Source of the DNA: Felis catus
Lineage: Eukaryota
DNA: 64,000 nt
Direction of reading: 5' to 3'
NCBI RefSeq assembly: GCF_018350175.1
Contig: NC_058368.1
Coordinates: 79,982,001 to 80,046,000, forward strand
The notes below the pieces were generated by a model. That model did no database searches, was not told the DNA's origin, and saw only the letters and a list, made by a program, of their open reading frames with translations. Position numbers and translations under genes: made by a program. Shown here one piece after another: positions 3,001 to 56,439 of this stretch. Position 1 is the stretch's first letter. Every line of letters begins with the position of its first letter.

Positions 3001-3989
3001 AAGAAAGGGGCACAATCTAATGGCACATCTTCGCCCTCGATGCCTCCTCCCTTTGACCGTCCAGTGCCCAAGTGGGAAGCAGGCATGTTTCCTTGTGGAG
3101 ATAAACACAGACCTGGCCTCACCTGAGTGTACCAGCCACCTCAAGGGTTCCCTCAATGCTCAAGGGTTTCCTCGATGCTCACTTTTGAAAAGAAATGTCT
3201 AAAGACCCTTTCCTTGCGGGGCTGGGTGCTAGATGCTGGCCGTGACTCAGAGGTGACCCCCGCCTTCTCTAAAGATATTTAACCAAATCCGAACTCAAGT
3301 GAACCAAGTCCCTGAGTAGCTGTTCTCAAGTCACGGAAAACTCAGCCAAAAATACCTGGAAAGCTATATCTAGATTATTCTGCCTGGTTACATGTTATTA
3401 ATGGGTGGATTTGGGGTAAAAATGAAAATGAGTCAGGCTGGAAAGCATATGCATGGAATAGGAAGTCTGAAAAAGCAGAGCCGTGGTGGGGGAGGTGGGG
3501 GGGCCACCACTGGAGTCTGCAGCTGCTGGACGAGAGGGGAGATTGGGAAAGTCGGGGGAATGGACTCCGCTCTCTTTGAGAGTGAGACTCGTTACCGCCA
3601 CCTCCCCTCCAGCTCCTGATGCTTTAAGTTACAAGAAAAACACTGTGATGTTGATACAGGCCTTCAGTTCCTATTTGTTGACATAGGAAAGTTCTACTTT
3701 TTATAGTTTTAAGAATGTCTTTGTTAGCTCAGTGTGCTTATGTGTAAAACTCAAGTTAGATCAAAAGAAAAAAGAAAGAGACAGAGAGAGAGAGAGAGAG
3801 ATTCCGTGTGGTATGAACATACTTTCCCCCACTATAAAATAACTCTTGCAAATGCACACTGGAACTAGCTAGAAAAACTTCCCAAATAAGAAAATGAACA
3901 GACCATGAAGGTGGATTATAGTTGATACGGTTGATAATGAAAGCTATCAATATATTTTCACATACTGCATTTGTTCAAAAAACTATCCA

Positions 3990-4207
3990 GGGGCACCTGG
4001 GTGGCTCAGTCGGTTGAGCGTCCGACTTCGGCTCAGGGCATGATCTCGCATTTCATGAGTTCAAGCCCCAGGCTGGGCTCTGTGCTGACAGCTCAGAGCC
4101 TGGAGCCTGCTTCGGATTCCATTTCTCCCCCTCTCTCTGCCCCTTCCCCTGCTTGTGCTCTCTGTCTCTCAACAAATGAATAAATGTTAAAAAAAAAATT
4201 TTTTTTT
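3990..4207 (+). mobile_element. Can-SINE
   Basis: Typical head, body and tail; flanked by AAACTATCCA copies. Confidence 0.95.
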
Positions 4208-4220
4208 TAAACTATCCATT

Positions 4221-4400
4221 GGGGCTCCTGGGTGGCTCAGTTGGTTAAGAAGGTAAGCGTCCAACTTCGGCTCAGATCGTGATCTCACAGTTTGTGAGTT
4301 CGAGCCCTGCATCGGGCTCTGTGCTGACAGCTCAGAGCCTGGAGCCTGCTTCGGATTCTGTGTCTCCCTCTCTCTCTGCCCCTTGCCAGCTCACACTCTG

Positions 4401-4446
<46 letters not shown>

Positions 4447-4472
4447 AAAAATAAACATTAAAAAAAAAAAAA
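4221..4472 (+). mobile_element. Can-SINE directly downstream of the previous one
   Basis: Typical body with expanded (CT)n and poly-A; small insertion in head (GTTAAGAAGGTAAGCG). Confidence 0.95.
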
Positions 4473-5434
4473 CACACACACAACTATTTATTAATACTGG
4501 TATCACCAACTATGAGTGTATTTAAAAACTAATAATAATGTTGGTACTTCAGCAAGTAGCTAAAAAGAAACCAAACCATTTTCTGTACAGTAAAATTCTC
4601 TGAATTTCAAGAGTGTGAGCCTGTGACCTGATAAGCCTGCAGCAGGCCATGAAGTAGAGAATGGACATCCAGCCCTGGCTGACACCCTCAGCGCCCAAGG
4701 AGCAGACAGTTGTCCATGGGCCTCCCTTGCTCCATACACCCCAGCCTGCCTCGGGCCCCCACTCGTCACAGGCCAACTGGCTTACTGGCCATGTCTTTTC
4801 ATGGCCACACCTGATGTACAGAACCACGCAGTTTCAGGGTGCTGCACTGTCCCCGGGGAAACCCAGGCAGACACCCTCTCTCCAAACAACTGAAACGCAC
4901 AGATTGATTGCCCTCCAGAGAAAAGGATTTACCCAGGTCTGTGACTCTTAAATGACAGGCAGGAACACTTGCTTAGAAAAATATAATTCAATTTACATTT
5001 GGGGAACAATAAATATTTACTGTTTTTGTAAATAATTCTGGGCCAGTGTGGGGTTAAAAATACTGATCTGAAGCCCTTAGGTGCAATAGAAACTTTTTCT
5101 GTTTTGAGAAACGTGCTAAGTTTCGTTCTTACACATGGGTTCCAAAGAATGCTACTGACTTGACAGGTTTTCTGCCAATACACGTGTCCCTTCTTGAGTC
5201 AAAAAAGGAAAGAAACCGAATCCGTTTTTCTGCATTAACTGCCACTAATTATCACAGTCTTTGGGGAGCTACTGCTGAGATCCCCTAGACATAATGTTAA
5301 GCCTGGTTTTGCTTCATTTGAATCACTCTGGGGAAATTATCAAAATAGTAAGTAATAAGGCTTTAAGATGAACTGCTGATGAATTGGTTAGGTTTAATGC
5401 AGTTTTTCATGATTTCCATATCGATGGCAATTCA

Positions 5435-24873: not shown

Positions 24874-25613
24874 ACAGAAGCTAATAGATGATACTAGCTG
24901 ATTTCAATTTTTAGTTGCACTAGGGCTTTTGCTAATCTGACCATACGAAGGAACCTGACACGCAGTGGTTTCCAAAATACATATTTTTTAAACCTTTAAA
25001 TTATTAAGTATCTTCAAAAAATAAAGACCAAGTGGTGCCCAGTACAGTTTCAGGGTACACACATTTCATTGCATTTCATTGCATCACAAGTGGAAAAGAC
25101 ACGTAGGATATACGCAGCCTTGATCTATCAGCCACGATAAAATAGACCGTGATCTATCGGTCACGCTCATTGGCAGCACTGATCAACCCAGAGGGCCTGC
25201 TCTGCGGCTCACCCAGCTCCAGGTGGCATCTGGCCTGAATGTCCCCGCCACCCCATCCAGCCCCGCAGGGAGCCCTTGCTCCATACCTTAGTCTGGGCCT
25301 CACCCAGCTTCCAGAACCACACACAATTGGGCTTTACCCTCCTGTCCATTTGTATGTTTTACCTTTTTAAGGCAATACTCTCCAGACCTTGTTTTGCTTC
25401 CAACAAACCACCATTTCCTACTCCCCCACCAGCCCAGCTCTAATTATTTTGTATTGTTTTTAGCTCACGGACCCTAATGAGGTGGTTCCATCAGCAGCCG
25501 GCTGCGTGATTCACTCTCTAGTCTGACATGACATGTTTACTTCGTGCAAATCTAAAGCAAACGTTGAAAGTATTTCATCAACAATAGTGCTTTAAAAAAA
25601 AACGGGGGGGGGG

Positions 25614-25838
25614 CGGCGCATGGGTGGCTCAGTTGGTTGAGCGTCTGGCTTCGGCTCAGGTCACAATCTCACGGTTTGTAGGTTTGAGCCCCACGTCGGG
25701 CTCTGTGCTGACAGCTCAGAGCCTGGAGCCTGCTTCTGATTCTGTGTCTCCCTCTCTCTCTGCTCCTCCCCTGCTCATGCTCTGTGTCTCTCTCTCTCCT
25801 TCAAAAATAAATAAAAACATTAAAAAAATTTTTTTTTA
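25614..25838 (+). mobile_element. Can-SINE
   Basis: Full body preceded by a poly-G run. Confidence 0.95.
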
Positions 25839-25852
25839 AAAAAAGGCTTGTC

Positions 25853-26078
25853 GGGGAGCCTGGGTGGCTCAGTCGGTTAAGGGTCCGACTTCAGCTCAGG
25901 TCACGATCTCATGGTCTGTGGGTTCGAGCCCCACGTCGAGCTCTGGGCTAATGGCTCAGAGCCTGGAGCCTGTTTCCGATTCTGTGTCTCCCTCTCCCCC
26001 TGCCCCTCCCCTGTTCATGCTCTGTCTCTGTCTCAAAAATACATAAACGTTAAAAAAAATTTTTTTTTTAAATAAAAA
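25853..26078 (+). mobile_element. Can-SINE, tandem with the previous one
   Basis: TSD AAAAAGGCTTGTC. Confidence 0.95.
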
Positions 26079-26814
26079 AAAAGGCTTGTCTACAAAATCA
26101 GGTAGAGCAAACATGTCATGGGAAATCTTAGTTTAGCCCAAGGAGTCGAAGGAATCAAATTGTCCTCTTTTGTTCTACTGTGTCGACTAGACAGGAAACT
26201 GGCAGATCACAAGCTTTCCCCCTTGAAAACCAGAGCGTTTCTTTACTGAAACCATTCGCTGCGCCCTTCGGGGGAGGAAATTCGCCGTCCAGTCATCTGT
26301 GAACGGTTTTCATATTTTTTGGTTCATAAAAAAGGTGACAGCAAAAGTTTATTTTCAAGAATGTGTTGAAGAATGTGATAAAACGTTATCGTTTGAAATC
26401 AGAACAAGTCAATCACTCTAACCGAGTTCTGTTCACTTACGGGCCACGGAAACCAGAGGTCACCCGCTGTCAGCTGGCAAGCACCACACAGGCGGGGCCG
26501 CACATCGAAACCCCACAGGCCCAGGTGACACCTTTTTCTCTGTGTTTGGGGGACACGTGGCTGTGTCCGGGTGCCAGGGTGACGCTGCCCCTGTGACCAT
26601 GTCACCATGCAACCCAACCCAAGAGCCAGGAGCCACCCGTGCCCCGTGGGACAGAGGACAGGCAGGTAACTTACCCCACCCCTGCATCCTCAGTGTTTAT
26701 ACTCCACGAAAACCAAGTAGCACCAGGGAGAACACAAGACCGTCCTTCCCAGACGCCCTGGAGAGAAGCCCAGTGCACGCCCCTCACGCTGACAGGGCGT
26801 TAACTTTGTTCTGC

Positions 26815-43250: not shown

Positions 43251-43805
43251 ATTTGGAGCCCCTTTTTATTTATGAATCCATCCCAAAATTATAACATCTG
43301 CCAAGTCGAATAAAGAGCTTTGTGTTTCTCCAAGCGAGACCTTAAAAGAACTGAAATACTGCGTGTTAATGCGTTCAGCGAAAACAGAAGGCGACTGGCC
43401 ATTCTGATTGTTCTATGTGTTTACCCCATGCCGTCCTATGCAACACATACAACCTTTCGGAGACAACAAACACGCTCGCACTTGACGCCCTCTACCCAGC
43501 AACAGTCAACGACAACTTCATATAAAGGTCAAAAGTGAAATGCCTTTAGGAGTTCCCTCCAAATCTTAAAATAAAAGTCACATTCCAAACTTCATAATTC
43601 TCACGAATACATCACAAAGTCACCATTATGCTATTGAAAACGAAAACAATTGCATGCTTGTATGACAGGGGAAAATATTCTAAAAATGAATTATATAGTA
43701 AAACCAGGAATCTTCAAGTCCCTGCTCACAAATCATGAGTTTGCTTTGGCCTAATTATCTTACGCGGCATGGTGTCCACACATCACACCTCTGCAGACAG
43801 AAGCC

Positions 43806-43903
43806 AGCCCCGCGTCAGGCTCTGTGCCGACAGCTCAGGGCCTGGAGCCTGCTTTGAGTTCTGTGTCTCCCTCTGCCTCTGCCCCTCCGCTGCTCACACT
43901 CTG

Positions 43904-43939
<36 letters not shown>

Positions 43940-43965
43940 AAATAAACATTAAAAAAAATTTTTTT
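43806..43965 (+). mobile_element. 5'-truncated Can-SINE
   Basis: Starts at AGCCCCGCGTCAGG; has (CT)n and tail. Confidence 0.92.
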
Positions 43966-44793
43966 AAAGACTTAAAGCCTTTCTCATATTCTTGGTCAAA
44001 CACTCTTTACAAAATACACGTGAGTACCAGGCGGAAGGTGTGTCTGGCATTGTGTGTCTCTGTCCACACGTGTGTGTGCCCAACACGTGGAACTACTCAG
44101 GGTGCCATATTACCCCTTGTTTGCTTCGAGAGTTACCCAATTCTTTGGGATCAGTGAAAGAGAGAAGCTTCTTCTCCCACCCAACCACGTGTTCCATTTT
44201 CCCTGCTATTTGGCCCTAAAAAACAATCGTACGGCTCCAAGCTTTCTCAGTAAACAAAACATCCTCTGGCCAGGGGCCCCAACATCTTTGACACCATCCA
44301 TGGGTTTGTGTAGCCACCAGACATGGAAGACACTCCCTCCAACTTTCTTCTCTGGGGAGAACAGCTGTAAGAGCATTGTTACGTGGTGACAAGACTTTAG
44401 AAAGGGTTATCCCCATCTCCCACAGCTGGAATTACTGTTTTTCAAAACAAAACGTGAGAAACAACAATACTGACCAATTTTCAACATTCCAAAAAGTACT
44501 CTGTGCTCCTTGAAGCACATTTTATGACATGATTTCAAACTATTTTATTAGCATCTTTAGCCCCTTGAGAATGGCCACGGGAAAAAGCAGAGCCATCGGC
44601 TGAAAACAACCAGCTGCAAAGAAGTGCCAGCACGGGATGAAGTATTTACCCCTGTGGCAACACGGAGGGCACAGCGTCAAACACAAAGCAGGACGCCTGC
44701 ATCTCTAACGTGTGGGTTCAGAGAACTCCGTTTTATCAAAAGTCTGTAAGTTAAGTAGTCACGGAGACTAGAAGTTAAGGTTGGGTAAAGCCA

Positions 44794-44937
44794 GGGGCGC
44801 CTGCCGAGGCTCAGTCGGTTGACCATCCGACTTCAGCTCAGGTCATGATCTCATGGTTCGTGGGTTCAAGCCCCACGCCAGGCTCTATGCTGAGTGTGGA
44901 GCCTGCCTGAGATTCCCTGTCTCTGTCTCTGTCTCTG

Positions 44938-44968
<31 letters not shown>

Positions 44969-45236
44969 GTCTGACCCTTCCCTGCCCACACTGTCTCTAT
45001 ATTAAAATTTTAAAAATCAGCCACCAGGGGTGCCTGGGTGGCTCAGTCAATTGAGCCTCCCACTTCGGCTCAGATCATGATCTCATGGTTCGTGGGTTCA
45101 AGCCCCACGTCGGGCTCTGTGCTAACAGCTGGAGCCTGCTTCGGATTCTGTGTCTCCCTCTTTCTCTGCCCTTTCCCCACTCATGTTCTGTCTCCCTCTC
45201 AAAAAAACAAATAAACACTAAAAAAAATTTTTTTTG
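44794..45236 (+). mobile_element. Composite Can-SINE dimer within one TSD pair
   Basis: Heads at 44794 and 45027; TTGGGTAAAGCCA at 44781-44793 and 45241-45253 flanks both units. Confidence 0.93.
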
Positions 45237-46276
45237 AAGTTTGGGTAAAGCCAAATCAGAGTGTCCTCCATCAGAGAACATGCTACCTACAAAACCCCTC
45301 CTTTCTGGAACATTTTAGTCACTCTCAGACAAAGATTTTCTGGAAACTAAGGGTCTTTTCTTATTTCTTGAGTTAAAGCCATTTCCCAATCTGTCAGCAA
45401 AGTCATATCCCCCCTCGCGTGCTGATAAATGTCTCCAACCCTCCGCCACCGTCGCGGGTCCAACAGTCCGTCAGCACGGCCCGGTACTCTAGAGAGAACA
45501 TACTCGGGCATCATCACTTTGCAACGTCCACCGGGGACCCTACGCTGTGCACCTGAGTCCTCCCAGTGCTGTCTTCGGCCCTCCTTCCGGGCCTTCCCTG
45601 CCGTCCTGTCCACATCGTTCTGTCCCCTTTCCAGTGCAGATCCATCACATTTTCGCCATGGCACGCACGCTGCTTTCGAGAGTCCGCTCCTAGCGGACAC
45701 GGGTGTCACTCACTGGGAAGAGCTGCGAGGCCCTGTCCAAGATCGCCGAGCAAGCAGGCGGCTGAGGCTCTGGTGTGGGTCCCACCACCCGGGCGAGGCT
45801 CAGCAAGCGCCCAGACTGCCATAGGGGTCACACCGTGACAGCGGCTCCTGTGCGGAATGCGCCAAAAGCAAAACACGTTGTGTCTACTGATGTGGGGGCC
45901 ACCGTGCTGCCTCCCTGAGGCCACGGCTTCGTGTCCAAGTATTCACAGCCTCCTGCTGAAGACTCACCCTGGGAGGGCAACCCCTGTGTGGATCCCACCG
46001 GGGTGGGATTTCTGTGATGGAGCCTTGTCCCATTTTCCCTAAAAACCATGACAGTGGCCATCTCCAGTCTTCCTGCACCTCTCCATGTTTCCAACCCCAG
46101 AGCCCAGAGGCAGAGGTCCTGACCACCTCCGGTGGCCCCAGGGCCCGGGTGGTCACTGACCTCCAGACGTAAAGGTGCGGCTTAATGTAAGGAGTTAAAT
46201 GGTATCTTTCCCTCTCTTTACTTTGTGGTTCAACTTTATCTATCTATTGTTTTCCATCTGAAAGACATTCTTCTTT

Positions 46277-46535
46277 GAGGCGCCGGGGTGGCTCAGTCGG
46301 TTGAGTGTCGGACTTTGGCTCAGGTCATGATCTCACAGATCATGGGTTTGAGCCCTGCGTCCAGTTCTGTGCTGACAGCTCAGAGCCTGGAGCCTGCTTC
46401 CGATTCTGTGTCTCCCTCTCTCTCTCTGCCCCTTCCCTGCTCACGCTCTGTCTCTCTCTCTCAAAATAAATAAACATTAAAAAAATTTGTTTTAAGGAAG
46501 GAAGGAAGGAAGGAAGGAAGGAAGGAAGGAAGGAA

Positions 46536-47890: not shown

Positions 47891-49043
47891 TGTTCCGGTA
47901 TTGAGGAACCCAAAGCCACAGCCCTGCCCCTAACATCTGACGTACGTGCTTGAACTACCTAAGTTACGCCCCAACCCAAATCGACAAGTATAACCTGAAA
48001 GCTGCAAGGATCTGCTAGTCTAGCCTCTCGGAAAGTCAGGGTGATACCCTAATCTTAGCCTCTGACCCCTTACAGAACAGGAAAATCTAATTCACACTCC
48101 TCAACAGTGTAGAAGTGGAAGCCCATGTTTTCCCTCAATTTGTGTCTAAAAAAACACGGGAGGAACACCGTATGAATGAGCTTTCCTAACCACGCCTGGC
48201 GGTACCGATCGCATTCAGTGGATGGGGTCTGCGGTTCAGACAAACCAAAAATAACCCCCCAGCTGTCTCTTCTCCGTAAAAGGCCTTTTCGGTGAACAGA
48301 AGTATGGCGCTGTCCTCCTCTTGACGTGAACAAGAGTGCTTTGCCTGGTTCTTTGGGGGTTTACATTGCACTCACCCCATCAGGCCAATAAGGCAGATGC
48401 CAACGAACGCGACCATTCCCTGAACATCAGAGAAACACGACCCCGGGACTGAACCTCACTCATTCTGCCCACTTCTCCTAGTGCGTTTTGTAGCTGTGAC
48501 CACTGAGCACGGTGGCCAGGAGACAGACAGCCACACTGCCCTGTCCAGGAGAAAGGCTATGGCAGCAGCATCCCCCACAGCCCAGAGACGGCCCTGAGTG
48601 CCGAGCGGGCCAGGAGGACCAGCGCACGGCCACCTGCCAGGGGGCAGGGCCAGGAAACAGCGCATCTGAGCGGCGCCACGTCTTGTCACATTGAGAACGT
48701 AAGAACGGTTCAACTTTCCGACGTGAGTTATTTTCCAAATTCAAGACTACGGCGTGAGCCAGAATCAGTTCCCTTGAAATGCTGCAGCTGGTAGGCACAG
48801 GTTTCGGAACGACAACGTGAATTGTGAAGACACGGATGCACCGGGAAGGAAGAAGACCAGCAGGAGGCCTCGCACGTGCCCATGGAACCCCATGCGTGTG
48901 CCTCATCACCCAGCAGCTGCCGATCACTGGGGCTGCCTCGGAGTACCGAGCTCTGGCCTGGCCGCGCGCGCATGAGGCTGTACAGGCAGGGGCCTAGGGC
49001 CTGGGGAGCACGGCCAGCGTGAGGGCCACGTGACAGAGGTAAA

Positions 49044-51050
49044 ACCACTGCTGAGGCCACTGGGGACACGGATCCATCCACTGACATGGCCAGTGACGCT
49101 GCTGCTGCTGCTGCTACTATTGTGGCCAGCGCCACTGCCAATACTGAGGCTGTGGCTGGTAACAGTAATACTGCTCTTACCAATACCACTGCTAATACTA
49201 CTCCTGCTCAGGCACCTGCTAATACTGCTGCTGGTAGTAATAATGCTGCCGATACTGTTACTACTATTCCTAATGCTGCTGCTGATGCTTCTGCTACTAC
49301 TAGGAAAATACCTACTAACACCACTGCTCCTGCTACTGCTACCACCGCAGGTAATGCTGCTGCTACTACTACTACTAATACCTCTAGTAATACCAGTGAT
49401 AATGCTACTGCCATCACTAATGTATCTGATGATACTACTGCTGATACTGTTACTACCATTCCTAAGGCTGCTGCTAATGCTACTACTAATAATAATATTT
49501 CTACTAACACCGCTGCTAATGCTACTACTACTACGATGGGTAACGCTGCTACTGATACTAACACTGCTGCACCTGTCACTGCTACGGATACTACGGATAA
49601 TGTTAGTAATGCTGCCACTAATACCAATACCTCTAGTAATACTAGCGCTAGTGCTACTGCTACTACTAATGTATCTACCAATAATACTGCCAATACCGTC
49701 GCTCTGTTACTACTATTACCGATGCTGCTGCTAATGCTACTACCACTGCTACTAATACCTCTACTAACACCACCACTCATGCTACTGCTACTACTATGTG
49801 TAATGCTGTTATTACTATTACCACTGCTGCTGCTGTTGCTGCTGCGAATACTACCGATAATGTTAGTAATACTGCTGCTAATGCTACTAATAACACATCT
49901 GGTGATACTAGTGCTAACGCTACTGCTACTACTAATGTATCTAATAATAATACTGCCAATACTGTTACTCTGTTACTACTATTACTGATGCTGCTGCTAA
50001 TGCTACTACCACTGCTACTAATACGTCTACTAACACCACTGCTACTGCTACTACTACCACCGCAGGTAATGCTGCTACTACTACTACTAATAATACCTCT
50101 AATAATACCAGTGATAATGCTACTGCCATCACTAATGTATCTGATGATAATACTGCTGATACTGTTACTACCATTCCTAAGGCTGCTGCTAATGCTACTA
50201 CTACTAATAATATTTCTAACACCGCTGCTAATGCTACTACTACTACCGCGGGTAACGCTGCTACTGATACTAACACTGCTGCACCTGTCGCTGCTACGAA
50301 TACTACAAATAATGTTGGTAATGCTGCCACTAACACTAATACCAATACCTCTAGTAATACTAGCGCTAATGCTACTGTTACTACTAATGCATCTACCAAT
50401 AATACTGCCGATGCTGTCGCTCTGTTACTACTATTACCGATGCTGCCACTAATGCTACTACCACTGCTACTAATACATCTACTAACACCGCTGCTGCTAC
50501 CATGGGTAATGCTGTTATTACCACGGCCGCTGCTGCTGCTGTTGCTGTCGCGAATACTACCGATAATGTCTGTAATGCTGTCGCTGACGCTACCAATCAC
50601 ACGTCTGGCGACACTGGTGCTAATGCCACCGCGCTGCCGACGCGGCTGCTGAACCTACTACTCCTGACGCACCTCCCAAAGCCGCTGCTGATGCCACCAC
50701 CACTCAGACAACCATGACTACCACCGATACTGCTGCTAACGCGACCGCTGAAGCTACCACTACCGACACGTCCACGATACGACGGCTAGTACCGTCGCTA
50801 AGGATACCGTGGATACTCAGGCTGCAAACGCTACCGCTGATACTATTAACTCCACTAGGGTGACAGCTACTGCTGAAGCTACCGACCCTGCTGTGACTAC
50901 CACCACCACCGACGCATCGACTGATCCCATTGCTGACGCCACTGCCGCTAATACCGCCAACGCTGCTGCCACTGAAACAGCCCCCACTGACACCGCAAAA
51001 GGTGTCGCCACTGATCCCACTGCTAACACCATCAGCCACAACAGCGCGCT
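49044..51050. repeat. Cryptic (ACT/GCT/AAT/ACC)n triplet array with ~190-266 bp monomers and ~715-bp higher-order duplication
   Basis: Landmarks ACCACCGCAGGTAATG at 49341/50056, CCTAAGGCTG at 49461/50176, GCTCTGTTACTACTATTA at 49701/50419. Confidence 0.93.
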
Positions 51051-55072: not shown

Positions 55073-56011
55073 AGAATCACTGGTCTCTGACCATCTTTTA
55101 CAGTGCACCCCAAATTCTTCATGACTTTTGACTCTATGTTTTCATGGCTTCTGAGCACCAAAGAATGTGCTTTCCTCTTCAAGACTGGGTGGAAAGCTCT
55201 CAGCATTGAATCTCAAAATCAGGCTCCCATATAACTAATCTTCCAGATCAGGACACTGCTGGGGGTGAACGGGAGCTCTATTAATAATTAACAACCACGC
55301 CAGGGTCACCGGCGTGGACTGGGCTGGCCCTCTGCACACCTGCTTCTGTGCCTTACATGGCGGACAAGCAGTACAGGGCACGGGGCTTGGAGTGTAACAG
55401 CCTTGCACAAACGTGCAGTCCTTCGCCACGGCATGAAGCCACAGCATGGCTTCGTAAGGACACGCTCCATCTTGTTTTCTTAGAAAGGCTTCCCCTGTGG
55501 GTCAGACGGCTTCTTCCATGGCCCCCTCACTTTCCCCTTACATCAAGGCTCTGAACTGGGTTCTTGAAGTCATCGCCCAGTTCCACCATCTGCAGACAAA
55601 TTCTAGGTTCACCTCCAAGATTTCGGCTTCTCTAGCACAGCCTTGACAATTAAGAGAGCCTGGCTTGGTGTAAGTCCTGTGCAGCGATGGGCACGTACCA
55701 TGCAAGGTAGGGCAGGAAAACTGAGGGGCTGAAACGCAGGGGAGTGTTGGATGTTTACACGCAAAGAAATCAGTGGTTCCAGGAAAATGAGATGCATGCC
55801 AAACATCTGATGGAGACAATGAGATCATATGTGCCAAAAATGTCCTCCTTCAGCAGGCTCTCCTGTCACCCTCACAAGTGCCTACATCCTGCCTCCTTCT
55901 AAGAGCCAACTCTTTGGGGGATGGTCAAACCTAGCTCTGTTCTGCCAAATTCAAGGGCTTTTTCCATAAGGAATCTTGTGCAATGGATCTTACTATAAAA
56001 ATCAGCTACCA

Positions 56012-56220
56012 GGGCGCCTGGGGGGCTCAGTCAATTGGGCATCTGACTCTTGATTTTGGCTCAGATCATGCTCCCAGGGTCGTGGGATTGAGCCCCGCGT
56101 TGGGCTCCATGCTAAGTGTGGACCCTGCTTGGGATTCTCTATCTCTCTCTCTCCCTCCCACTCTCCCTCTCTCTCTCCCTCTGACCCTTCCCTGCCCACA
56201 CTCTCTCTAAAATAAAATTT
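56012..56220 (+). mobile_element. Can-SINE (older subtype)
   Basis: TSD AAAAATCAGCTACCA (55997-56011) / AAAAACTCATCTACCA (56221-56236). Confidence 0.94.
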
Positions 56221-56439
56221 AAAAACTCATCTACCAAAAACATGTCTTTAGACCTATAGTTTGCGGTTTGTATCTCTTCCAGAGTCTGATAAGGGCTCCA
56301 GGAACCGCCTCCTTCAAAATGCACCATGCACAGACTCATTAACGTACATATGATTCTGAGGGTTCATGGACACCCGCCCCCAACTGAAGAGAACACCCTG
56401 TGGTCTAGACCATTAGTTTTCACTTGTAAGTTGAATTTA

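Follow-up and report, generated by a model that had tools for sequence, protein, structure and literature searches.

We found that a dimer of two head-to-tail SINE units in the cat genome is a mosaic whose center is specifically akin to another SINE (here called e56), which has the same orientation, lies 11,210 bp downstream, and starts at position 56012 of the window (the whole stretch of 64,000 nucleotides that was analyzed). This kinship, and the order tail-TSD-head in which the shared sequence runs, had been put forward in an earlier note, and both were borne out by three markers: a 23-mer, the linker between the units, and a rare CAATTG in the second head. The junctions of the mosaic are in register and the markers are specific to e56. 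From this arrangement, we infer that the dimer is a young SINE (called X) enclosing an in-register insert from the older e56. We give a probability of about one half to the reading that DNA-level copying, guided by homology, broke up a monomeric X with sequence from its neighbor.

Architecture of the dimer and of its neighbor

Both units and e56 combine a conserved tRNA-like head with a (TC)n polypyrimidine tract, a tail rich in A/T, and TSDs, and we take them to be Can-SINEs, the tRNA-derived SINEs of carnivores. The head motif of this family, GGCTCAGTCRRTTR, has 282,193 copies genome-wide. Full-length alignments of unit 1, unit 2, and e56 were made with 9 further copies from the window and with genomic copies, and typing against subfamily consensuses distinguished an F type, without a 7-bp head insertion, from an insertion-bearing I type (Table 1). 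Each sequence statement of the earlier note could be recovered at its position, and the observation is confirmed. The dimer, e56, and the 11,210 bp between them each occur once. A segmental duplication relating 44 kb to 56 kb was considered and rejected, since the similarity is confined to the SINE parts.

Table 1. Features of the dimer and of e56, with positions in the window
Feature	Position	Strand	Basis
Outer 5' TSD of the whole dimer, AAGGTTGGGTAAAGCCA	44777..44793	+	16/17 identical to 45237-45253
Unit 1 head, F type, probably X-derived; no 7-bp head insertion; 35-mer at 44843-44877	44794..44886	+	F-type diagnostic columns to column 100
Unit 1 body and tail, I type like e56	44887..45011	+	Type switch between columns 100 and 101
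(CTGTCT/TC)n tract of unit 1	44917-44972	+	Within I-type body/tail
23-mer of the unit 1 tail	44970-44992	+	Exact elsewhere only in e56
Linker AAAAATCAGCCACCA, probable copy of the e56 TSD	45012..45026	+	14/15 to 55997-56011
Unit 2 head start, with the rare CAATTG of e56 (AA at 45049-45050)	45027..45059	+	2 mismatches and 1 gap in 24 versus e56
Unit 2 remainder, F type, probably X-derived; second 35-mer at 45075-45109, body, A/T-rich tail	45060..45236	+	F-type diagnostic columns
Outer 3' TSD of the dimer	45237..45253	+	Match to 44777-44793
e56 5' TSD, AAAAATCAGCTACCA	55997..56011	+	Sequence match to 3' copy
e56, ordinary I-type Can-SINE; 7-bp head insertion, (TC)n, 23-mer at 56180-56202, A-rich tail	56012..56220	+	Alignment and typing
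e56 3' TSD, AAAAACTCATCTACCA, decayed	56221..56236	+	2 mismatches and 1 indel versus 5' copy

The two units lie under one TSD pair, as had been noticed. TTGGGTAAAGCCA at 44781-44793 recurs unchanged at 45241-45253 (13/13), the match being 16/17 when lengthened to 17 nt, and the TSD of X reads AAG(G/T)TTGGGTAAAGCCA. With 1/17 differences, this pair is the least diverged part of the dimer. It starts with AAGG/AAGT after ...CTAG, a weak and purely qualitative resemblance to the TT/AAAA-like motif of the L1 endonuclease. No separate TSD pair flanks unit 2, and the linker corresponds to neither of the dimer's flanks. The build of an ordinary tandem array, with one TSD pair per unit, is therefore not what we see here; both control head-to-tail dimers of the window (2/2) carry unit-specific TSDs.

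The linker had been described as a copy of the 5' TSD of e56, and the 14/15 match was reproduced; against the 3' TSD, it matches at 12/15 plus one indel. The 15-mers upstream of the 24 intact SINE heads of the window form 276 pairs, among which the linker and e56 are the sole pair to reach 14/15, the remaining 275 matching at no more than 11/15. The proposed scan for linkers equal to the TSD of a neighbor, carried out within the window, thus singles out the dimer/e56 pair (1/276). Genome-wide, an 18-mer made of the linker and GGG, with Y at the variable site, is found exactly at the dimer and at e56 only. Allowing one mismatch adds 26 places, and one of the 6 inspected belongs to an unrelated SINE as its TSD. 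Since such near-matches occur, one of them as a SINE TSD, the evidence from the 15-mer is weaker than 4^-15 implies. The reverse filiation, in which e56 was born from the dimer, was ruled out, as both e56, an I-type copy, and its A-led TSD are typical.

Composition of the two units

Unit 1 is a hybrid. Its diagnostic columns up to column 100 are F type except columns 6 and 28, which read I type here and likewise in unit 2. The switch at 44886|44887 is flanked by the identity blocks GGGCTC (6 nt) and TGCT (4 nt), so that unit 1 has the chimeric structure, with an in-register breakpoint at microhomology, that characterizes Alu/Alu rearrangements. The head insertion that it lacks is present in 28 of the 29 other inspected copies with its body 20-mer; among 40 other genomic copies with its 35-mer, 36 are devoid of the insertion and none has its body. 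No support was found for a retrotransposed family of hybrid copies: apart from itself, 44843-44930 had its best match at 86 to 87% (among 40 scored out of 1,716 candidates).

The 23-mer of the unit 1 tail, reported as identical to 56180-56202, occurs at exactly two places in the 2.43-Gb genome, both in the window. Its sequence lies near the consensus of a subfamily: 31 places differ by one mismatch, and 928 by at most two. The alignment of 44926-45026 with 56136-56236 is ungapped, at 83%. The body had also been assigned to the same subtype as e56. The shared type holds, but it is a subfamily trait only, given that the body 20-mer has 717 exact copies. We rejected the idea of a uniquely e56-like body, since other copies match the e56 body at 80 to 89% versus 77% for unit 1 (among 40 scored out of 3,527 candidates). 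The two bodies show 7/44 differences, and none of the private body variants of e56 is held in common.

The head of unit 2 shares the atypical GGCTCAGTCAATTG with e56, as claimed, and this variant was counted in 1,355 of the 282,193 comparable heads (0.48%). Combined with CTCAGATCATG, it has only 30 copies genome-wide, two of them being unit 2 and e56; the same two are among the 30/282,193 copies in which CAATTG accompanies CAGATCATG. The return to X type falls between 45051 and 45060, the latter being the first F-type diagnostic site. From column 35 on, all diagnostic columns are F type, and columns 101-150 show 2/43 differences from the F consensus. The second head had been judged a mosaic without the insertion of the donor, and indeed neither unit has the 7-bp insertion of e56. 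Four head variants private to e56 (missing first G, GGGGGG, TTGGGC, and GCATC) are absent from unit 2. Two A's private to e56, at 45074 and 45124, are found in unit 2 inside the stretch predicted to come from X, and would therefore reflect chance or patchy repair. The case for an e56 ancestry of this head is thin: one rare dinucleotide variant and its adjacency to the linker would point to it.

The dimer would accordingly be ordered as X (columns 1-100), a body and tail of e56 type, the e56 TSD, the e56 head as far as column ~25, and X again from column ~26/35 to its end. Because X is left after column 100 and re-entered at ~26-35, its columns ~35-100, including the 35-mer, are present twice. 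The 35-bp segment had been noticed in both units, which are among its 45 places genome-wide. The e56 version of columns ~35-100 is absent from the dimer. Units 1 and 2 show 5/59 differences in columns 35-100 and 8/34 in columns 1-34 (heterogeneity, P = 0.06), and the parts assigned to e56 show 17/129 differences from it. No difference from the F consensus common to both X copies was seen in the overlap. Given this and the 1/17 divergence of the outer TSD, nothing indicates a long solo existence of X.

Origin of the insert

The likeliest process would be DNA synthesis by copy choice, during either the repair of a break or a replication stall, with multi-invasion SDSA, MMBIR, or serial replication slippage as candidate pathways. 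Synthesis would have switched from X to e56 after column 100 (44886|44887), proceeded through the tail and TSD of e56, slipped from the 3' TSD to the 5' TSD, copied the start of the e56 head (first ~25 to 34 nt), and returned to X, in register, at column ~26 to 35. The earlier note had offered, as its second alternative, repair synthesis that invaded the 56-kb SINE and slipped between its TSDs; this fits the mosaic without extra steps. The donor lies in cis, just 11 kb away, among at least 280,000 comparable SINE heads, which favors a proximity-dependent DNA process. A DNA-level event, the direction assigned to each switch, and an earlier monomeric X are what the mosaic suggests. The need for three switches counts against copy choice on a chromosomal template. 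Template switching between Alu elements has been reported to give chimeric junctions that are in register, lie at microhomology, and are concentrated downstream of the Pol III boxes (PMC6071635), and non-B microsatellites provoke break-induced replication with template switching (PMC11161834). Polypyrimidine tracts are present in both SINEs here.

A topologically equivalent route would use a TSD-closed circle of e56 as the copying template. In another circle route, an e56 circle gapped in columns ~26-100 would undergo ends-in integration, the gap being filled from X. Such routes would amount to DNA-level mobility of a SINE without L1, with a TSD-closed e56 circle of ~225 bp that was broken and entered a diverged SINE 11 kb away by ends-in gap repair, or served for rolling copy; we regard this as unlikely.

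The earlier note had also held that ordinary retrotransposition cannot give this order. This stands for independent insertions, which fail because unit 2 has no TSD pair, but not for template switching by a reverse transcriptase. A single L1-mediated TPRT event with such switches, by which the dimer arose in one step within one TSD pair, is rather improbable but the likeliest of the alternatives. The enzyme would have started on X RNA at the target, passed by homology to a read-through (Pol II/intronic) e56 RNA with both TSDs, copied the head and 5' TSD, jumped to the 3' TSD, continued through tail and body, and gone back to X RNA. This would place the whole structure under one TSD pair, and the divergence of the outer TSD (1/17), of the X duplicates (5/59), and of the e56 parts (17/129) gives no sign of two dates; the lack of any sign of a long solo phase of X would suit one retrotransposition event too. 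Bipartite L1 insertions under one TSD pair, made by template switching or by RNA ligation, are known, including 452 Alu/L1 chimeras, but the known chimeras are whole RNAs joined end to end and colinear (PMC13174262), whereas here three internal homology-guided switches would be needed. The event would also require an RNA with the genomic flanks of e56, and a donor at 11 kb would be a coincidence for a diffusible RNA, barring nascent local transcripts. Internal copy choice should moreover be harder for an enzyme without RNase H, which to our knowledge mammalian ORF2p lacks.

A further alternative is a colinear chimera without any permutation. The head of X would be joined to the body, tail, and 3' TSD of e56 (e.g., if reverse transcriptase, having completed an X cDNA, jumped from its end onto a read-through transcript of e56), with unit 2 being entirely X and its CAATTG due to chance. 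Indeed, 44926-45026 is colinear and ungapped with the e56 tail and 3' TSD (BLAST match q23-247), the four private head variants of e56 are missing from unit 2, and the unit 2 head shows 2 to 4/26 differences from general consensuses versus 3/26 from e56. What makes this origin improbable to a marked degree is that CAATTG would arise by chance at 0.48%, and jointly with the A of CAGATCATG at ~1 in 10,000 (30/282,193). A common X source, as indicated by the 35-mer, also predicts that columns 1-34 match equally well, while 8/34 differences were seen versus 5/59. Finally, neither a terminator nor microhomology accounts for a landing precisely where the TSD ends.

We consider very improbable the reciprocal integration, through one crossover, of an intact TSD-closed e56 circle with later gene conversion between the units. 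Such a circle would carry tail, one TSD, and head in order; TSD-TSD recombination is an accepted, very rare route of precise SINE loss (PMC5402677), and yeast has been found to form LTR-LTR circles (PMC4751563). A circle with one reciprocal crossover, the first mechanism offered in the earlier note, predicts one X-type and one e56-type unit at each position. This prediction failed, as columns ~35-100 are X type in both units and the insertion-bearing version of e56 is in neither, and at least one extra conversion with matching borders is therefore needed; the circle idea keeps only its gapped ends-in form and its use as a copying template. The homologous arms are also short and ~75 to 88% identical. 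Most improbable is an artefact or chance, whether a chimera of the assembly or a coincidental likeness between two independent insertions: an unrelated SINE elsewhere does have a TSD one mismatch from the linker, but three independent rare markers, adjoining each other, all point to the same neighbor, the two ordinary dimers of the window differ in build (2/2), the assembly is in 71 contigs, and 92 to 94% of sampled words of 43500-46500, a measure not specific to the junctions, were found in 20 runs from 9 studies.

Comparison with known systems

A close likeness of the proposed DNA copying is to Alu/Alu rearrangement and ectopic SINE-SINE gene conversion, through template switching/MMBIR, MMEJ, or homeologous recombination. 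As in those systems, the dimer has an in-register chimeric junction at short identity blocks, located just downstream of the B-box region, and a partner that is a diverged nearby SINE in the same orientation (PMC6071635). Unlike them, the 11-kb interval between the dimer and e56 is neither deleted nor duplicated, and the tract adds ~232 bp, carries the TSD of the donor, and runs into the donor head in rotated order. With L1 chimeras (U6/L1 and Alu/L1), the dimer shares a bipartite sense-oriented insertion, a single TSD pair, and an A/T-rich 3' end, but those chimeras consist of complete RNAs end to end (PMC13174262), whereas the dimer has a hybrid 5' unit, internal homologous junctions, and a donor TSD. 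It thus departs from the complete 5' RNA, colinearity, and absence of donor flank expected of an end-to-end jump of L1. The tandem CanSINE arrays of Felidae, ascribed to repeated insertion into CanSINE loci already present, also place Can-SINEs head to tail a few bases apart; each insertion described there has its own TSD (PMC4084570), while the dimer has the outer pair only and the TSD of another SINE as its linker.

Circles formed between direct repeats (by TSD-TSD excision, or as LTR-LTR eccDNA) would have exactly the junction seen in the insert, with one TSD between the tail and head of the donor, here in a homologous target; on the head side, this likeness depends mainly on CAATTG. No circle is observable here, and e56 is still in place. 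Ends-in integration of gapped plasmids, a gap-repair model from yeast work, offers a further parallel, as a gap filled from the chromosomal target would account for the X type of columns 35-100 in both units. In the literature searched, we found no germline reintegration of a circle of ~230 bp by homology and no description of a SINE dimer with the TSD of a neighbor as its linker, although a prior report of the latter may exist.

Significance

SINE-rich genomes undergo recombination and template switching between diverged repeats, and the documented outcomes are mostly deletions, duplications, and like-for-like conversion tracts. The locus described here preserves an outcome in which the TSD of the donor was carried along and set between the donor tail and head, which therefore implies that copying involved either a TSD-to-TSD slip or a TSD-closed circle. 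By present signs, the dimer has no evident function and would be a neutral relic of an old event. We infer that this tail-TSD-head capture records DNA copying between repeats, a rare kind of footprint and a variant of SINE/SINE recombination. A single old neutral event of this kind is an instructive curiosity, not a discovery; if recurrent, such footprints would be countable genome-wide and would provide a sequence signature of a repair or replication pathway, or of the reintegration of small circles in the germline.

Setting and layout of the SINE dimer

The window (C1:79,982,001-80,046,000, in a genome of 2.43 Gb and 71 contigs) holds many tRNA-derived SINEs that carry a (TC)n tract and end in an A/T-rich tail; we take them to be Can-SINEs of the feliform type. 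Searching the window by BLAST with unit 1, unit 2 and e56, the SINE proposed as donor, yielded 106 alignments, probably of about 30 SINE copies; the 5' end is intact in 24 of them.

Features of the dimer, its proposed donor and other loci (window coordinates)
Feature	Position	Strand	Description
Outer TSD of dimer, 5' copy	44781-44793		TTGGGTAAAGCCA
Unit 1	44794-45011	+	SINE unit inside outer TSD pair
Linker	45012-45026	+	AAAAATCAGCCACCA; separates unit 1 from unit 2
Unit 2	45027-45236	+	SINE unit inside outer TSD pair, head-to-tail with unit 1
Outer TSD of dimer, 3' copy	45241-45253		TTGGGTAAAGCCA
e56 5' TSD	55997-56011	+	AAAAATCAGCTACCA; flank of e56
e56	56012-56220	+	proposed donor SINE
e56 3' TSD	56221-56236	+	AAAAACTCATCTACCA; decayed copy of e56 5' TSD
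Ordinary SINE dimer 1	3977-4480		upstream unit has own TSD AAACTATCCA; second unit begins 2 nt past TSD
Ordinary SINE dimer 2	25613-26090		downstream unit's own TSD AAAAAAAGGCTTGTC within A/T tail of upstream unit
Repeat-rich open frames	49023-50652	+	long frames rich in Thr, Asn, Ala and Ser; many N-x-S/T sequons

Extended to 17 nt, the two outer TSD copies of the dimer are identical at 16 positions. The proposed donor has the same orientation at a distance of 11,210 bp, and its 5' TSD matches the linker at 14 of 15 positions. Comparison of the flanks at the locus revealed no TSD pair belonging to unit 2 itself, which excludes independent insertions of the two units, the ordinary origin of felid CanSINE tandem arrays according to one study (PMC4084570). 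Both of the other head-to-tail dimers in the window carry a unit-specific TSD.

The unique flank just past the 3' TSD of the dimer (45247-45259) reads GCCAAATCAGAG. The string AAATCAG is common to this flank, the linker (45012-45020) and the e56 TSD, and AGCCA to the outer TSD and the linker. This sharing, noticed post hoc and of a length easily reached by chance, could reflect microhomology in the event or be meaningless.

Imperfect repeats make up the open frames nearby: one period is about 266 bp (2.8 copies, 78% matches), others of 21-24 bp are nested, and two 277-bp stretches 715 bp apart match at 89%. The frames resemble a repeat exon of the mucin type with heavy glycosylation; of three pieces searched against Pfam, none matched a family.

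Markers shared with the neighbouring SINE

The 23-mer identity between the dimer and e56, the shared CAGTCAATTG, the 35-mer found in both units and the lack from both of the 7-bp head insertion of e56 are all present as the earlier note described. Among the 276 pairs formed by the 24 intact heads of the window, the upstream 15-mers match at 14 of 15 positions only for unit 2 and e56, and at 11 or fewer in the remaining 275. In the genome as a whole, the 18-mer made of the linker plus GGG was exact at these two loci only, with 26 more places at one mismatch. Such near-matches are less rare than naive arithmetic suggests because TSDs are A-led, and one of the six one-mismatch loci inspected was the TSD of an unrelated SINE. 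The SINE in question is a young F-type element (L009, G000:C11:54756153-54759170, minus strand, around position 1500); a single mismatch separates its TSD, AAAAATCAGCCAACA, from the linker.

The 23-mer is exact at two places, both here. It lies only one to two substitutions from a common subfamily sequence: genome-wide, 31 places carry it with one mismatch and 928 with no more than two. The rare head variant CAATTG (GGCTCAGTCAATTG), common to unit 2 and e56, occurs in 1,355 of 282,193 comparable heads genome-wide (0.48%), and together with CTCAGATCATG in only 30 copies, unit 2 and e56 among them. The linker, the 23-mer and CAATTG adjoin one another and all indicate the same neighbour; coincidence is not a credible source of the three.

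Mosaic structure of the two units

The alignment of unit 1, unit 2 and e56 was polarised with majority consensuses of 25 I-type and 36 F-type genomic copies. I-type elements, of which e56 is typical, carry the 7-bp head insertion (…GACTCTTGATTT…) and the body …CCATGCTGAGTGTGGAGCC…, while F-type elements lack the insertion and have the body …CTGTGCTGACAGCTCAGAGCCTGGAGCC…. Unit 1 is F-type at diagnostic sites to 44886, save two sites early in the head (columns 6 and 28), which read I-type in both units, and I-type from 44887 onward. Two neighbouring diagnostic columns bracket the switch, with GGGCTC and TGCT identity blocks on either side. The body 20-mer of unit 1 has 717 copies genome-wide; the head insertion accompanies it in 28 of 29 other inspected loci, the last having a larger deletion there. 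Of the 43 other 35-mer loci in the genome, 40 were inspected: the insertion is missing from 36 and present in 4, and the body of unit 1 occurs in none. An F-type head on an I-type body is thus unusual.

From 45060 on, every diagnostic site of unit 2 is F-type. The e56 or I-type states that it carries are, at 45049-45050, the AA of CAATTG and, at 45074 and 45124, two isolated A's, which are G-to-A states otherwise private to e56, within stretches that are X-type (that is, like the putative host SINE) at all subfamily-diagnostic sites. Chance, patchy repair of mismatches in a heteroduplex or an exchange between the SINEs at a later date could account for these two A's.

The dimer therefore seems to read as X (1-100), e56-type sequence (101 to end), the e56 TSD, e56 (1 to ~25) and X (~26/35 to end), where X is a single F-type SINE whose columns ~35-100 are present twice. 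Both X/e56 junctions are in register. Distal tail and TSD are the e56-specific parts. In its body, unit 1 is typical of the subfamily and no more, differing from e56 at 7 of 44 sites and sharing none of the private variants of e56. Among the 40 scored of 3,527 candidates, other genomic copies reach 80-89% identity to the e56 body and unit 1 reaches 77%, although the alignment of unit 1 alone continues through the TSD. Of five e56-private states in the head, unit 2 has one, and the link of its head to e56 rests mainly on CAATTG and the position directly behind the linker. Absent private states are expected if the sequence of e56 has diverged by ~6% from its state at the event. Overall, it is probable (about 0.8-0.85) that the rotated order of tail, TSD and head is real.

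Age and mechanism of the event

Differences amount to 1/17 in the outer TSD pair, 5/59 between the two X copies (columns 35-100) and 17/129 between the e56-derived parts and e56 (body 7/44, tail 6/46, linker 1/15, head 3/24), with no significant difference among the three figures. The event is old: at mammalian rates, a pairwise divergence of about ten per cent points to an age of tens of millions of years. These comparisons gave no sign of a long monomer phase of X beforehand.

DNA-level homology-guided copying is the most likely mechanism, at about even odds. It is favoured because the junctions keep register and fall at short blocks of identity a little beyond the B-box region, because the donor is only 11 kb off in cis and because both dimer and e56 contain polypyrimidine tracts. 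In one route, copy-choice synthesis during break repair or at stalled replication would quit X after column 100, copy the e56 body, tail and TSD, slip from the 3' to the 5' TSD of e56, copy ~25-34 nt of head and re-anneal to X in register, so that X(35-100) would be copied a second time. In another, a TSD-closed e56 circle would serve as template, with two switches only; in a variant, a circle gapped in columns ~26-100 would integrate ends-in, the gap being filled from X, as in the gapped-plasmid model from yeast. Either route would account for the mosaic with no additional step; the circle variant is a live option, though unproven. One reciprocal crossover with an intact circle is insufficient, since columns ~35-100 are X-type in both units and the e56 version is in neither. 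These features resemble Alu/Alu template switching (PMC6071635) and the break-induced replication, with template switches, that microsatellites trigger (PMC11161834). Recombination between TSDs is accepted as a way, if a very rare one, in which a SINE can be lost precisely (PMC5402677).

A single TPRT event in which reverse transcriptase switched three times between X RNA and a read-through RNA with e56 and both its TSDs would also yield one outer TSD pair, and suits the absence of a detectable monomer phase; however, the known L1 chimeras are end-to-end and colinear (PMC13174262). A colinear order, unit 1 plus the e56 3' TSD and then a complete X, would need CAATTG by chance at 0.48% and leaves unexplained why the units differ at 8/34 sites in columns 1-34 versus 5/59 in 35-100 (Fisher p=0.06). 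Assembly error seems unlikely: 20 of 24 listed runs, from 9 studies, each contain 92-94% of the sampled words of 43500-46500, a figure that is not junction-specific.

The dimer is a neutral relic without evident function, and is read as a new form of SINE/SINE recombination, of interest chiefly as a searchable signature.
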